Shown piece by piece: positions 6,510 through 12,393 of a stretch of DNA of 19,434 nt. Made by a program: the position numbers and the translations under genes. The notes under the pieces were generated by a model. It was given only the letters and a program-made list of their open reading frames with translations. It had not been told where the DNA came from and searched no databases. Position 1 is the stretch's first letter. Each line of letters begins with the position of its first letter. This stretch comes from a virus (taxonomy: Duplodnaviria; Heunggongvirae; Uroviricota; Caudoviricetes), in the IMG/VR virus record IMGVR_UViG_2778261454_000002, positions 1-19,434 of that record. One strand, 5' to 3'.

Positions 6510-7196
6510 TTACCAAGTGCGCGATGACCAGAATACTCTACCTATAACGTGAATTCTTGAACGCCTATCTTCGAAGGTGAGTATTTCATCTGGATACTCA
6601 TCTTTATTGAAACTTCTTAGAATCAGACCACCGTCAGGTAAATTGATCAATATTTTAACTCTAAGTAATACGCCATCACGTATGGCATAAAGATCCCCAT
6701 CACGAATAGGAACCGTTTGGGAAACATCAACAGCAACAAAATCTCCATTGTTAAGTACAGGTAGTAAACTATTGCCCCAAATTTTTACGATCTTTGCATT
6801 GGAGACACATACACCAGCTTTTCTTAAATCAATCCTTCTTAGCGGGAACCAGTCTACAGTTGATTCAACTATTTCAGCCAAACATCCATTACCCGCTGAT
6901 AACTCGACATCTAGGACTGGAATGTTTGCAAAAATGTCAGGATCTAATGCTGTACTTTCAGCCTCCTTTACAACAAGGTCTGGGAAAGACGCGTTATCCT
7001 CAATGCCCAATTGCAACCACTTTTGAGAAACCCCTAACACTTTAGCAATCTCTTTAATTTTCCGAGGCTGTTGAGTTTCTCCATTCTCGATTTTCGCTAC
7101 GGATTGTTGTGAAAGCCCAATTTTTTCAGCTAGTTGCGCCTGACTCATTCCTGCTTTTTCTCTTTCGCTTTTTAGTCTTTCTGCCAATGTTTTCAC
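6510..7196 (-). CDS. cI: CI-type prophage repressor (N-terminal XRE HTH, C-terminal S24 LexA-like autopeptidase domain)
   Basis: 228 aa; HTH MSQAQLAEKIGLSQQSVAKIENG; C-terminal domain with Ser in IWGNSLLP and Lys in LLRVK. Divergent from cro; GTG start. Confidence 0.9.
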   Translation of the reverse strand: MKTLAERLKSEREKAGMSQAQLAEKIGLSQQSVAKIENGETQQPRKIKEIAKVLGVSQKWLQLGIEDNASFPDLVVKEAESTALDPDIFANIPVLDVELSAGNGCLAEIVESTVDWFPLRRIDLRKAGVCVSNAKIVKIWGNSLLPVLNNGDFVAVDVSQTVPIRDGDLYAIRDGVLLRVKILINLPDGGLILRSFNKDEYPDEILTFEDRRSRIHVIGRVFWSSRTW

Positions 7197-8500: not shown

Positions 8501-9136
8501 ATGAGCACTAAATTAACCGGCTATGTATGGGATGGTTGCGCAGCGTCAGGCATGAAATTATCCAGCGTGGCAATTATGGCCCGCCTGGCTGATTTCAGTA
8601 ATGACGAAGGTGTGTGCTGGCCATCAATTGAAACCATTGCCCGCCAGATTGGCGCGGGGATGAGTACCGTCAGAACGGCTATCGCACGGCTGGAAGCAGA
8701 AGGCTGGTTAACGCGTAAGGCGCGTCGCCAGGGTATCTGCATCATCGTCTGCCTGTCATGGGCTGTTAATCATTACCGTGATAACGCCATCGCCTATAAA
8801 GAACAGCGCGATAAAGCCACGTCTATCATCGCTGATATGCAGAAGCGTCAACGTGATGTAGCAGAACTTGACGCCAGATACACAAAGGAGCTTGCTGATG
8901 CTAATGCGACTATCGAAAGTCTCCGTGATGATGTTTCTGCTGGGCGTAAGCGCCTGCAAGTCGCCGCCACCTGTGCAAAGTCAACGACCGGAGCCAGCAG
9001 CATGGGCGATGGAGAAAGCCCAGGACTTACAGCAGATGCTGAACTCAATTATTACCGTCTCCGAAGTGGAATCGACAAGATAACCGCGCAGGTTAACTAC
9101 CTGCAGGAATACATCAGGACGCAATGCCTGAAATAA
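8501..9136 (+). CDS. Chimeric ORF: replication-initiator-like HTH N-terminal domain (about 78 aa) fused in frame to the C-terminal part of i-spanin Rz
   Basis: N-terminal [34 protein letters not shown] is an HTH typical of phage O-like initiators. From [19 protein letters not shown]... onward it is colinear with lambda Rz ([20 protein letters not shown]...[19 protein letters not shown]...LRDDVAAGRRRL...). Junction near nt 8735. Confidence 0.7.
8904..9083 (+). CDS. rz1: o-spanin Rz1 lipoprotein, embedded in the +1 frame of Rz
   Basis: Inside track ORF 8868..9083; [18 protein letters not shown] has a lipobox (LLGVSAC) followed by a Pro-rich segment ([16 protein letters not shown]), as in lambda Rz1. 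Start codon chosen by me. Confidence 0.7.
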
Positions 9137-9159
9137 TTTTTTTGCAAATCACAAAGTCA

Positions 9160-9235
9160 ATTTAATGAGCCTCGCGATGCGGGGCTTTTTGCAATAAATG
9201 CGTACCGCAACGCATGTTTTTTACACCGAACCTGC
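9160..9235 (+). terminator. Two tandem hairpin/T-run elements downstream of Rz
   Basis: AGCCTCGC-GAT-GCGGGGCT followed by TTTTT, and ATGCG-TACCGCAA-CGCAT followed by GTTTTTT. Coordinates approximate. Confidence 0.4.
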
Positions 9236-9337
9236 CCCTTTGGAATGGGCCTTTGAGGATACCAGTTAGTGCTGGCGAGCCTCGGTGGGCTGGTTTCCTG
9301 TGCGGCAAAGGTTCATTTCAAAGAGTAGGTACACGCT

Positions 9338-9835
9338 ATGAAATCATTAACCCTCTTCAATCAACCAATTCGTATCGGTGAAGATGGCATGATCTGCCTC
9401 ACTGATATGTGGAAAGCCAGTGGTAAAAGTGAATCTGAATCGCCTTACCACTACCTGCGAAACAAGCAGACCAAAGAGTTCTTAGCCGAGCTGGAGAAAA
9501 ACCACGAATCTGTGGTTTTTACTGAGCGCGGTGTACACGGTGGAACATATGGCGGGAAGTTTGTTGCTTACGATTATGCGGCTTGGTTAAACCCCGGGTT
9601 CAAGTACGCGGCCTATAAAGTCCTCGATGACTACTTCACAGGAGAACTTCAGCATCGCAACAGCTTAAGTGCGCAGCTCAACATGAAATGTCATGAGTTT
9701 GACCAGAAGAAAGACATGGCGAGTTTCTGCGGACAAGGGCTGGCGGCATGGCGCTATACGAAGCCAGTGTTGGTCGCTGAGATTAACTCCCTGGCTAACC
9801 AGCTGCAGATTACGATCCCCGGGCTTCCGGGATGA
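9338..9835 (+). CDS. KilA-N domain protein
   Basis: 165 aa; N-terminal pattern (FNQPIRIGEDGMICLTDMWKASGK...) matches the KilA-N DNA-binding domain as recalled. Confidence 0.65.
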   Translation: MKSLTLFNQPIRIGEDGMICLTDMWKASGKSESESPYHYLRNKQTKEFLAELEKNHESVVFTERGVHGGTYGGKFVAYDYAAWLNPGFKYAAYKVLDDYFTGELQHRNSLSAQLNMKCHEFDQKKDMASFCGQGLAAWRYTKPVLVAEINSLANQLQITIPGLPG

Positions 9836-10089
9836 GTGATCGTGTCATTGAATGCGCCTCCAGAGCGGGGCGCGACTTCTCAGAGTTCATGAAAGGCGAG
9901 AAGGGCATGATGGAAGCATTGGCCTCGGTGGATGAGTTTGGCGAGCAGCTGCGCCTCAACGGCTGTGTCAATCATCACTTTGTTAGCTACATGATGCGGA
10001 ACTCGATCATGCAGGCATTCATGGACATGGCAAAAGCCGAGAGGAAAGAAGAGCGCCGGCGTAAGCGAGCGGAAGCAAAAGCGAAGTAG
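9832..10089 (+). CDS. Hypothetical protein (85 aa, basic C-terminus)
   Basis: ATGA overlap with the KilA-N stop; C-terminal KAERKEERRRKRAEAKAK; followed by a hairpin (AAGCCCA...TGGGCTT). Confidence 0.5.
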   Translation: MSDRVIECASRAGRDFSEFMKGEKGMMEALASVDEFGEQLRLNGCVNHHFVSYMMRNSIMQAFMDMAKAERKEERRRKRAEAKAK

Positions 10090-10183
10090 CCATTCCAAAG
10101 CCCATCTACGGGTGGGCTTGATAATGGTATGTATTGTCTTCGGGAAGGCTTTGTAGATGTTAAGCGATTATTAAGAGGCAATC

Positions 10184-10342
10184 ATGACTTTAGCTGAACG
10201 TGTAAAGAGAATTGAGAGCGAATTAAAAGACATTAAATCGCAACTCAATTCTGGTACCGATTCTAGGAAAACAGCAAAAGCAATGCCCTTATCCAGTCTT
10301 GCAAAAGAGGGAGGTATCCCTGGGGGGTTAGTTAAAAAATGT
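10184..10342 (+). CDS. Small hypothetical protein (52 aa)
   Basis: Not in the track; AAGAGG RBS 6 nt upstream of ATG; predicted MTLAERVKRIESELKDIKSQLNSGTDSRKTAKAMPLSSLAKEGGIPGGLVKKC; its 3' end overlaps the convergent protease gene. Confidence 0.3.
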
Positions 10343-10792
10343 TAACTCAAATACTTGATTGGAAAAATCCATCGTAAGGGCGCCCATTTTAATTAGTTGC
10401 ATTCCGAAAACGACTTGGAATTTTCTCCCGTTACTTACCAATGGCACTGAAGTCAATTCTGTTGAAAAAACTCTTTCGTCCTCAGTGAACGATATTACCG
10501 CATGCCGAACTGTAGTTTCTATTGTTGAGGTGGCTCCGCTCACAGTTGTTTTTTCCGCGATTGGGAGTTTTAAATCGTCAGCAAAGTCTGAATCCACATA
10601 GCAAAGATCTGCTCCGGTATCTATAAGTGCGTAGGCACCAGCCTTCAATCCATTTGGTTTATAAACGTTTATATCTTTTGAGCTACTTGGCCATACTGTC
10701 AATGGAACTACGGGAATTGCATGCTCCGTGGGGGTATCTGATACCGATCCATCAATAGGGGAAATAAACTTGATTTTTACTTTGGTGATCAT
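10328..10792 (-). CDS. Retropepsin-like (clan AA) aspartic protease
   Basis: 154 aa; catalytic-type motif ALIDTGADLCYVD (D-T-G-A) and C-terminal GMQLIKMGALTMDF resembling the retropepsin dimerisation strand; AAGGA RBS. AT-rich, opposite orientation to its neighbours, with its own upstream intergenic region. Confidence 0.65.
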   Translation of the reverse strand: MITKVKIKFISPIDGSVSDTPTEHAIPVVPLTVWPSSSKDINVYKPNGLKAGAYALIDTGADLCYVDSDFADDLKLPIAEKTTVSGATSTIETTVRHAVISFTEDERVFSTELTSVPLVSNGRKFQVVFGMQLIKMGALTMDFSNQVFELTFFN

Positions 10793-11051
10793 CCTTTTTC
10801 CTTCGAAGAGTTATTCAGCCATTCCTCCTCTTTGCGTGAATCAGTGTCCCACCACTGACGGGCTGAATGCTTACCTTACCCGGGGTTAAAACGAAGTAAT
10901 ACCCTGATATTCAGACAGTAACCGCATCGCGCGGCATTTATGCGCATCGCACGCGCACATCAAAGAAAGTCTTTCAGCTGTGAGCCTGGGCAAACCGTTA
11001 ACTTTCGGCGGCTTTGCCGTGCGACAGGCTCACGCCTAAAAGGAAATACCC

Positions 11052-11216
11052 ATGAAATATTTATCGCTACAACAGGCGATGCTCGGCATGCGAGTAATCA
11101 TGACCGATGATGGCCTCATTTTGAAAAGCCCGGCAGGTAGTGCGCATTACGATCTGAAAGGTCGACGCCATACAGTTTGGGGGATGCTTCTTTCTTCCCG
11201 GAGCATATGCGTGTGA
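11052..11216 (+). CDS. Small hypothetical protein (54 aa)
   Basis: Not in the track; ATG about 8 nt after AAGGA; overlaps the next ORF in a different frame. Confidence 0.3.
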   Translation: MKYLSLQQAMLGMRVIMTDDGLILKSPAGSAHYDLKGRRHTVWGMLLSSRSICV

Positions 11217-11725
11217 AGGATAAGCGTAAGCCTAATCTCAGCCGTATTGTTTTTGAGAAAGACTGCACGACTATTTATGGTGCTGATGGAAAACCACAAG
11301 CACGCATAGGTAACTGGGATAAACCGGGAGAACCAAAAGGCTGGCGAATCCAAAAAGACGGCGCGTATATAACGTCTTATGAATTCAATCCTAAGAATAA
11401 TTTTAATGAGAACGGCCAGCAGTATGCAGCTGGAATGGTCGTTGGTATTGATGTGCAAAAGGGCAATGCAGCTGTTAATGCCAATCAATTTAAGTCTCCG
11501 ATAGAAGCACCAGATCCAATAACCGAGAGCATTTTAGAAAATGCACTTTCAACCCATGCTGCTAATAAAAACATCCAGGCCCTCATCAACCAGCAAGCAA
11601 AGGAGATCGTGGAAATGAAACAGGGCTTTGCCGAGTCTGTAAAAAAGGAGCTGGCTAAGCATCTTCGCCATGGTGGATTGATGTGGTCTGCATTAGTCAA
11701 GCGAAGTAGACGTTTAGACGTCTAA
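11207..11725 (+). CDS. Hypothetical protein (172 aa from ATG; track ORF begins at TTG 11177)
   Basis: Long ORF with no family recognised; the last gene before cos, where lambda carries bor and accessory ORFs. Confidence 0.5.
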   Translation: MRVKDKRKPNLSRIVFEKDCTTIYGADGKPQARIGNWDKPGEPKGWRIQKDGAYITSYEFNPKNNFNENGQQYAAGMVVGIDVQKGNAAVNANQFKSPIEAPDPITESILENALSTHAANKNIQALINQQAKEIVEMKQGFAESVKKELAKHLRHGGLMWSALVKRSRRLDV

Positions 11726-11789
11726 ATAACAACAGGCACTCAAACACAATTGATAACCATTATCGTTTGGGTCCTTTCCGGCAATCCGC

Positions 11790-11815
11790 CCTGTTACGGG
11801 GCGGCGTCCGCGCAG
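11790..11815. other. cos site: cosN nicking region with predicted 12-nt cohesive end GGGCGGCGTCCG (about 11799-11810), cosB downstream
   Basis: GTTACGGGGCGGCGTCCGCGCAGATTCTCGCTATATATGAAAATTTT is nearly identical to lambda cosN (GTTACGGGGCGGCGACCTCGCGGGTTTTCGCTATTTATGAAAATTTT), about 80 nt upstream of Nu1. Confidence 0.7.
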
Positions 11816-11886
11816 ATTCTCGCTATATATGAAAATTTTGGACATGAGGTTGTTGTTTAATCATTGCTGAAAACGGGTGAGGGAAT

Positions 11887-12393
11887 ATGGCCGTGCTATT
11901 GAATAAATCTGATATGGCTTCCTCGCTGGGAATATCCGTCCAGGCCTTTGATAAATGGGGTGTCCAGCCAGTAGAAAAGAGAGGGCGAGAAGTCTTCTTT
12001 GACGTTCGTTCAGTCGTTGATAACCGCATCGAACACCAGAGTCGAAAACTACAACCATCGCCGGGAGAAGACGATGATAGTGTCAATATTGATTATGAAC
12101 GTTGGCGTTTAACTCGTGCTAATGCGGATGCGGCTGAGCTGGCCAATGAGAAAAAGCGTCGCGAGGTCGTAGAGACTGCGTTTTGTACCTTCGTGTTATC
12201 CAGAATTGCCGCTGAAATATCCAGTATTCTGGATGGCATACCCCTTTCGATGCAGCGCCGGTTCCCTGAGCTGGAAAATCGGCATATCGAGTTCCTGAAA
12301 GGGGACGTAATAAAGGCAATGAATAAGGCTGCGGCGCTGGATGAACGGATTCCGGGGTTGTTGAATGATTATATCGACCAGTCAGGTAGCTAA
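11887..12393 (+). CDS. Nu1: Terminase small subunit Nu1
   Basis: 168 aa; C-terminal two-thirds almost identical to lambda Nu1 (VVETAFCTFVLSRIA.EI.SILDG.PLS.QRRFPELENRH..FLK...IKAMNKAAALDE.IPGLL); GAGGGA RBS. Confidence 0.9.
   Translation: MAVLLNKSDMASSLGISVQAFDKWGVQPVEKRGREVFFDVRSVVDNRIEHQSRKLQPSPGEDDDSVNIDYERWRLTRANADAAELANEKKRREVVETAFCTFVLSRIAAEISSILDGIPLSMQRRFPELENRHIEFLKGDVIKAMNKAAALDERIPGLLNDYIDQSGS

Follow-up and report, generated by a model that had tools for sequence, protein, structure and literature searches.

Does the 2.4 kb of accessory genes between the lysis genes and the cohesive-end site (cos) of a lambda-like prophage form one hidden system, or cargo acquired piece by piece? 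The question is raised by positions 9338-11725 of the window analyzed here, the whole 19,434-bp draft contig NODD01000048.1 of GCA_002518125.1, which holds a lambdoid prophage segment; a sequence-only reading had proposed a single candidate uncharacterized system there. We find instead that the interval is very probably a patchwork of three independently mobile accessory modules in a lambda-like prophage. Module 1 is a KilA-N gene followed by a gene for an 85-amino acid (aa) protein, module 2 a cassette with a retropepsin-like aspartic protease gene and a convergent 53-aa open reading frame (ORF), and module 3 a gene of the phi80 gp66/N15 gp59 family, hereafter gp59-like (Table 1). Their slot, between the lysis cassette and cos, is a standard add-on (“moron”) position, and the backwards-facing protease cassette is the only rare module of the three.

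Comparison of the locus across related prophages showed that the modules occur separately and that their boundaries vary. None of the 8 NCBI/Logan loci and 44 IMG/VR loci contained all three modules, and no IMG/VR locus had both the KilA-N gene and the gp59-like gene beside the cassette. Module 1 DNA is 95–99% identical, directly after Rz, in HK620 (hkbK, hkbL), Stx1/Stx2 phages, ECP1 and PhiR49_1; it also matches many complete E. coli genomes, where the best hits, among the matches listed, span this module alone. All of these carry the KilA-N/85-aa pair without the protease, and similarity to relatives stops at ~10127. Conversely, there are Enterobacter prophages and IMG/VR contigs that carry the cassette but lack that pair, and megablast of the cassette against 5,426 complete E. 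coli genomes returned no match. In Enterobacter prophages it is 95–98% identical amid other lysis genes, other terminases (Terminase_4 + HNH, Terminase_2) and other neighbors, and the same sharing across differing neighbors was seen in 24 IMG/VR contigs. Within the module 2 stretch, the only matches to the phage collection fell on the leader; the protease gene and the 53-aa ORF had none. On the left side, most loci begin to resemble the cassette at 10078-10090, others not until 10127 or 10175; across IMG/VR contigs this left edge varies from 10078 to 10175 and the right edge from 10923 to 11113, leaving 10175-10923 as the minimal shared unit. GC content is 0.40–0.42 across 10200-10800, compared with ~0.50–0.53 in the KilA-N and 85-aa genes and ~0.43–0.47 in the gp59-like gene. 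Because the modules have separate distributions and boundaries, we infer three separate acquisitions rather than one system.

The sequence-only reading thus held up in describing cargo that was acquired independently and sits in a known variable slot, with each module having a distribution and composition of its own, and failed in taking the set for one system. It was right to call the genes non-lambda, yet two of these modules are frequent among other lambdoid phages that are functional. It had stated that a fixed, syntenic gene set with a known role in such phages would refute it; modules 1 and 3 are fixed and syntenic in many functional lambdoid phages, though with no known role. The lysis genes that it placed upstream are absent, and only a fusion ORF of replication protein O and Rz is present there. 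Overall, the region is ordinary lambdoid mosaicism with one rare uncharacterized moron.

That moron carries the protease gene. Profile search and structure prediction, both proposed in the sequence-only reading, gave a score above the Pfam cutoff for PF13650 (Asp_protease_2) and a predicted retropepsin half-barrel fold with a flap and a hydrophobic-hydrophobic-Gly motif. The motif IDTGAD occupies residues 57–62 (D58, T59, G60, A61), and in a 40-member alignment (A4) the DTG and G130 are invariant and A61 nearly so. Searching PDB sequences with phmmer returned no match, and fold comparison alone gave relatives; PHROGs and NCBIfam held no family for the protease or the 53-aa ORF, barring a sub-threshold match to clan_AA_DTGF. 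The family comprises 72 representative clusters of ~115–200 aa, standalone save for two longer multi-repeat proteins. No transmembrane segment is apparent in the window’s protein, which is predicted to be cytoplasmic and which, with one DTG per chain in a monomer model, would act as a homodimer. The gene had been described as AT-rich and divergently transcribed; AT-rich it is, but it diverges only from the gp59-like gene and converges with the 53-aa ORF. Our literature search yielded nothing relevant on retropepsin-like proteases in prophages or on aspartic proteases in defense.

Upstream of the protease lies the intergenic region that had been noted as structured and ~250 bp long. It measures 259 bp (10793-11051), is both structured and conserved, and consists of two leaders, A and B, back to back. 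Leader A, on the protease strand, contains a near-invariant 25-mer at 10842-10866, then a hairpin and a Shine-Dalgarno (SD) sequence. The exact 25-mer was found in at least 120 IMG/VR contigs; ~50 nt past it, after a GGAGG...CCTC hairpin and the SD, lie cargo ORFs of at least 21 unrelated families. Among the matches listed, the cargo is mostly 65–95 aa long and in many cases coiled-coil-like by eye, the protease is the cargo in 10 of 117 cases, and the cargo is antisense to the flanking genes at 109 of 112 loci, an orientation consistent with expression from a repressed prophage. Leader A also precedes ES18 gp25, annotated as “possible moron”, and HK022 gp23 (“moron gene product”), which is flanked by homologues of gpI and gpJ. 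At its far end the leader forms an intrinsic terminator that serves the late strand and has a covarying stem; the window’s hairpin (10922-10941) is a degenerate copy of it. There is no universally conserved 3′ flank among leader-A cargo genes.

A moron, as Juhala, Hendrix and colleagues reportedly defined it in 2000, is extra DNA between genes otherwise adjacent, of deviant composition, with its own promoter and terminator and expressed from the prophage. The cassette is inserted between genes that are adjacent in related phages, in which the 85-aa gene or the lysis genes are followed by other content, and has different neighbors elsewhere, and its GC content is below that of both flanks. Close relatives invariably have the protease gene in the interval from the lysis genes to the terminase, facing the opposite way to all that surrounds it. 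Given the leader shared with annotated morons and the antisense cargo, the cassette is by architecture a textbook moron with a putative promoter of its own, and the inverted repeat at its usual left boundary may be the terminator of the antisense transcript.

Several smaller observations concern leader A and the edges of its cargo. The conserved loop GGCUGA is complementary to the core’s conserved UCAGCC, and the two could form an alternative pairing. A mini-ORF in the leader (MAE*) was rejected as an element, since it lacks conservation and falls inside the stem and loop of the predicted hairpin. Prophage anti-sRNAs were likewise ruled out as the identity of the leaders, because they lie 3′ of pR′ (Tree et al. 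2014). The 5′ end of the convergent small ORF (~10184-10220) recurs with 96–100% identity over 26–35 nt beside three other cargo families. Several further leader-A cargo families have a common GCGGCC...GGCCGC-TTT terminator. Together, the recurring ORF ends and the shared terminator, noted downstream of leader-A cargo (loci L197, L204, L227, L280 and L281), look like reusable cassette boundaries.

What might the protease do? We tentatively suggest, at well below even confidence, that it cleaves some incoming or induced protein and thereby shields the lysogen against other phages. Of the homologues inspected, two are not in obvious prophages and both are beside defense genes, one 1.6–3 kb from an AbiLi homologue (E 7.5e-56) and the other next to an OLD/AriA-like ATPase and an HNH protein. 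In addition, 9 of 40 family members match PDC-M08B, component B of the PADLOC candidate PDC-M08, at E up to 0.01 (best E 2e-6). To our knowledge PDC-M08 is an unvalidated candidate, and we found no paper on it. The first moron described, HK97 gp15, is a superinfection-exclusion protein (PMC3594210). This evidence for an anti-phage role is suggestive and thin, and on such weak association a defense role is possible for the protease cassette only. No conserved partner gene was found in the loci examined. In keeping with the moron reading, homologues of 28–51% identity are again single antisense genes, set in late or tail operons of prophages in Pseudomonas and other hosts. An example is a Pseudomonas homologue of 34% identity, which stands by itself in antisense orientation with the NinG region on one side and the small terminase gene on the other.

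Alternatively, the protease could be a lysogenic-conversion factor acting on host proteins and thereby on physiology, fitness or virulence, which we consider unlikely. In favor, the gene shares its slot and orientation with lambda bor, and its product is predicted to stay in the cytoplasm. The host-directed roles of morons are diverse (PMC3594210). However, no host-pathway genes are associated with the protease, and the only non-prophage contexts seen adjoin defense genes.

The convergent ORF raises the further possibility that it and the protease gene form a two-gene unit, in which the small basic protein would be an inhibitor, antitoxin or substrate, or its transcript an antisense regulator through the 18-nt overlap. 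The ORF, 53 aa long and not 52 as first reported, lies inside the minimal shared cassette in every case and is called as a gene in every Enterobacter locus; it is preceded by a good SD, and 8 variants keep it open. Next to a 51%-identical protease (locus L052), the convergent small ORF is a partial homologue sharing PLSSL..GGLV motifs. Against this, the distinct codon changes among the variants are 13 nonsynonymous to 5 synonymous, which gives no sign of purifying selection on the protein and leaves coding uncertain. Part of the shared motif lies inside the overlap and may merely mirror the protease C-terminus, other distant homologues have unrelated small ORFs at this place or none, and similar small-ORF 5′ ends also stand beside other cargo families. 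Scans of Pfam, PHROGs, PADLOC and NCBIfam found no family match for the ORF. We regard a two-gene unit as improbable.

A role in assembly of the phage’s own particle, such as processing of tail-tip (J-like, DUF1983) proteins, is very unlikely. Distant homologues of the protease do adjoin lambda K-like (JAB + NlpC/P60), L-like and H-like (tape-measure) genes or lie in the tail-fiber region, and the family recurs beside Phage_Tail_Tip/DUF1983 genes (the gp59-like neighbors at L004-L009 and a 233-aa neighbor at L059). Yet nearly everywhere the gene runs against the structural operon, most related phages lack it, and it sits behind a generic moron leader shared with unrelated small cargo genes, and the K/I/J interval is itself a known moron slot (HK022 gp23). 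The tail-tip moron slot of the distant homologues at L052, L060, L063, L068 and L026 is that of HK022 gp23. Finally, that the whole 2.4 kb works as one coordinated multi-gene system for defense, exclusion or host interaction is hardly credible: its genes are contiguous in a known hotspot of accessory functions, a PADLOC candidate matches the KilA-N protein at the domain level and the protease family is weakly related to PDC-M08B, but apart from the distributions and boundaries given above and the lack of any related locus with the full set, the modules are not all on one strand, each of them has a separate conserved leader, and the gp59-like gene is frameshifted.

Leader B, the other half of the intergenic region, is a late-strand leader RNA of ~115–135 nt that ends at a ribosome-binding site and occurs twice in the window, ahead of module 1 and ahead of module 3. 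The second copy is 94–99% identical to copies in mEp390, HK639, phi80, Fraca and others, with a different gene behind each; the genes found behind leader B include phi80 gp66 and rha, HK620 hkbK, mEp390_054, HK639_13 (a moron after the major tail gene) and an HNH gene, among others. RNAalifold folds it into a 17-bp two-helix stem, which the diverged first copy keeps through compensatory changes (alignment A6). In a 12-sequence alignment, 94.6% of cells are paired at these 17 pairs, compared with 25–45% when the partners are slid; 9 pairs show compensatory double changes, the observed covariation score was reached by 0 of 500 shuffles, and the G-U pairs agree with the plus strand. The covariance model found 34 copies in 424 kb of loci, all on the late-gene strand wherever gene calls permit a check. 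An exact 17-mer of leader B occurs in at least 120 IMG/VR contigs; among the matches listed, an ATG follows at a fixed 21 nt in most, the genes behind it belong to at least 9 families, mostly Rha, and the leader is co-oriented with its flanks at 98 of 116 loci. Rfam gave no match to leader B, nor to anything else within 9000-12000, at E up to 1. The outer pairing of CUUU with AAAG would partly mask the SD, from which translational control or RNase processing can reasonably be inferred, and leader B may be an undescribed cis-regulatory RNA.

These strands can be combined into a broader proposal: that the cassette is a new single-gene anti-phage protease of prophages (superinfection exclusion or abortive infection), that leader A is a portable regulatory and recombination “moron expression cassette” for at least 21 cargo genes, and that leader B is a second undescribed cis-regulatory RNA gating accessory late genes such as rha and kilA-N. 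Taken as a whole it is doubtful. Several results also weigh against the main reading of the locus as a patchwork with a protease moron. A sigma-70 promoter scan found nothing convincing at leader A, where the only candidates are the weak hexamers TTACTT/TTGCTT, 15 nt, TAAGGT. The SD-proximal hairpin of leader A is 79% paired, compared with 48–58% with the partners slid, but its covariation is not significant. Dimerization and proteolysis are predictions, and the defense association comes from two loci. The window’s protease matches PDC-M08B weakly (E 0.02), and among the neighboring products (53-aa, 54-aa, 182-aa) none matches any PADLOC model, including PDC-M08A. The 53-aa ORF always accompanies the cassette in close relatives, as a two-gene unit would. 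The contig is a draft, so that the deletion junction and the frameshift described below could in principle be assembly or sequencing errors.

As the discovery of a hidden system, the locus carries little weight. Its interest lies elsewhere, in standalone retropepsin-like antisense morons of Enterobacter, Pseudomonas and other prophages, which have no assigned function and occasionally lie beside defense genes; phage exclusion that depended on D58, if true, would add an aspartic protease to the defense repertoire. The two leaders, one preceding antisense cargo families and the other, supported by covariation, late-strand families, suggest that accessory-gene expression in lambdoid phages is organized by reusable control modules. 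If so, such leaders would help to predict which prophage genes are expressed in lysogens.

The other two modules are better known. The KilA-N gene and the 85-aa basic protein were both correctly recognized from the sequence. Pfam places a KilA-N domain at residues 9–101 (E 1.3e-15) and ORF11CD3 at residues 109–161 (E 2.4e-13) of the first product, both of which are listed among Bro-network domains (PMC10111431), and on this domain evidence it is a Bro-network DNA-binding protein in which KilA-N is joined to a shuffled C-terminal partner domain. Its match to the PADLOC single-gene candidate PDC-S22 is short (E 1.2e-8, best stretch residues 60–90) and probably reflects only the shared KilA-N domain. 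The start of the 85-aa gene overlaps the KilA-N stop by ATGA, which predicts translational coupling, and in related phages this gene is always 3′ of the KilA-N gene.

Module 3 had been read as a pair of ORFs of 54 aa and 172 aa (172/182 aa) but is one gene split by a 1-nt deletion. In the window it reads as ORFs 11052-11216 and 11177/11207-11725; DNA alignment places a missing T at ~11184-11186 (TGGGG-GATGC versus TGGGGTGATGC), and tblastn shows the frame switch. Intact homologues in Enterobacter prophages are continuous and 224–274 aa long, among them P0082 (224 aa, 88% identical), for which an AlphaFold2 model was unusable (predicted local distance difference test score 48). The phi80 gene gp66 is annotated “similar to N15 gp59”, and in phi80-type phages a gene of this family is usually the one that closes the late genes ahead of cosQ. 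Both gp66 and the mEp237 homologue share the pre-cosQ position and the leader of the window’s gene, and direct tblastn of these two against the window gave no match. Beside the protease homologue at L059, the convergent neighbor is a DUF1983/Phage_Tail_Tip protein with a C-terminal PGG motif as in the gp59-like family. Within the cosQ-like region, TGATAACCATTATC at 11751-11764 resembles a Fur box and, when extended, agrees with 14 of 19 positions of the consensus GATAATGATAATCATTATC; a weaker Fur-like sequence, GATAATGGTATGTATTGTC, lies at 10120-10138. Both are noted by resemblance only. Two neighboring phi80 ORFs, x171.8 and x171.28, are annotated “Fur-regulated”.

Around the interval, the contig has a minus-strand early-left region (RdgC, exonuclease, dATP/dGTP pyrophosphohydrolase), continues through a CI-like repressor (6510-7196), a Cro/YdaS-like protein, CII and the start of replication protein O, and, 3′ of the interval, passes through an N15/phi80-type cos to a lambda-like head module (Nu1, A, W, portal, S49 protease, D, E). 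The fusion ORF upstream joins O and Rz in frame, with HTH_36 at residues 23–70 and Phage_lysis at residues 100–209. At the nucleotide level, the match with the O genes of SfII, SfIV and PhiR49_1 runs up to 8741 and the one with Rz sets in at 8731, placing the junction at 8731-8741; the fusion was found on this contig alone. PhiR49_1 has ~7.5 kb between the two segments, occupied by the remainder of O, the nin region, Q, a porin moron, S and R. The loss of this ~7.5 kb (O′...Q, S, R, ′Rz) leaves a prophage without Q, holin or endolysin, which is probably defective unless the junction is an assembly error. A phage-inducible chromosomal island embedded in its helper was considered as the source of the junction and ruled out, since the left part of the prophage is ordinary lambdoid early-region DNA, 96–98% identical to SfII and PhiR49_1.

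Table 1 Features of the accessory interval and its flanks, in window coordinates
Feature	Position	Strand	Basis
Chimeric ORF, replication protein O N-terminus + Rz C-terminus	8501-9136	+	Pfam HTH_36, Phage_lysis
Leader B copy 1, diverged, ends at KilA-N SD/ATG	9203-9336	+	covariance model R1, 94.3 bits, E 1.9e-19
KilA-N + ORF11CD3 protein, 165 aa, HK620 hkbK homologue	9338-9835	+	Pfam, phrog_129/10441
85-aa basic protein, HK620 hkbL homologue	9832-10089	+	phrog_875 E 3.2e-54, pI 9.1
Inverted-repeat hairpin (I4), usual left cassette boundary	10090-10127		inverted repeat
53-aa ORF, 18-nt 3′ overlap with protease gene	10184-10345	+	coding uncertain
Soluble retropepsin-like (clan AA) aspartic protease, 154 aa, moron cargo	10328-10792	−	Pfam, fold
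Leader A, moron upstream region and 5′ leader	10795-10945	−	shared with HK022 gp23, ES18 gp25
Leader B copy 2, ends at gp59-like SD/ATG	10940-11055	+	covariance model R1, 115.8 bits
phi80 gp66/N15 gp59-family gene, frameshifted	11052-11725	+	tblastn, DNA alignment
cosQ-like region, then 12-nt cohesive end GGGCGGCGTCCG	~11746-11798, 11799-11810	+	aligns to phi80 cosQ/sticky end, N15 position 1

How the parts would work can be sketched from this arrangement. An intact relative would express modules 1 and 3 from the tail of its Q-antiterminated late transcript, with a separate copy of leader B gating each of the two gene sets. The protease would be transcribed alone from leader A on the minus strand in the lysogen, would be silenced after induction by convergent late transcription, as is presumed for lambda bor, and would act on its targets as a dimer. 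With Q and pR′ deleted here, the late-strand accessory genes of this prophage, one of them frameshifted, are probably silent or read from pR, and the protease moron is likely the only part of the interval that it expresses.

Each module has counterparts in known systems. HK620 hkbK and hkbL are direct homologues of the module 1 genes in the same position after Rz, but in a different context, as the upstream lysis genes are deleted in the window. phi80 gp66 and N15 gp59 are likewise direct homologues of module 3, immediately before cosQ, from which the window’s copy differs in its broken reading frame. For the protease cassette, the closest parallels are HK022 gp23 and ES18 gp25, whose leader is 75–80% identical to the window’s over ~117 nt, including the near-invariant 25-mer. 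As in the window’s cassette, one small cargo gene faces against the late operon, and the leader ends distally in a late-strand terminator; the cargo of HK022 and ES18, however, is a 70–95-aa helical protein, whereas that of the window is an aspartic protease of 154 aa. Their slot lies between tail genes and the window’s after the lysis genes and before cos, although distant protease homologues sit among tail genes.

Lambda bor, which is expressed in the lysogen, lies between Rz and cos antisense to the late operon and thus has the slot and orientation of the window’s protease gene. It encodes an outer-membrane lipoprotein, in contrast to the soluble retropepsin-like protein here, and the two have no sequence or fold kinship. 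HK97 gp15, a moron in the late operon, is expressed from the prophage and protects against other phages (PMC3594210), which makes it a functional analogy for the proposed protective role; it is a small inner-membrane protein without homology to the protease. PDC-M08 resembles the cassette through component B, whose models match part of the family, and differs in that no component A neighbor occurs at the window. Among retropepsin-like proteins, Rickettsia APRc (5c9b/5c9f), the RVP domain of Ddi1 and the retroviral proteases are just 11–19% identical to the window’s protein, which has an additional β-rich N-terminal extension of ~45 residues. It lacks the membrane anchor of APRc and the ubiquitin-like and UBA domains of Ddi1 and, unlike all of these, is carried by a prophage.

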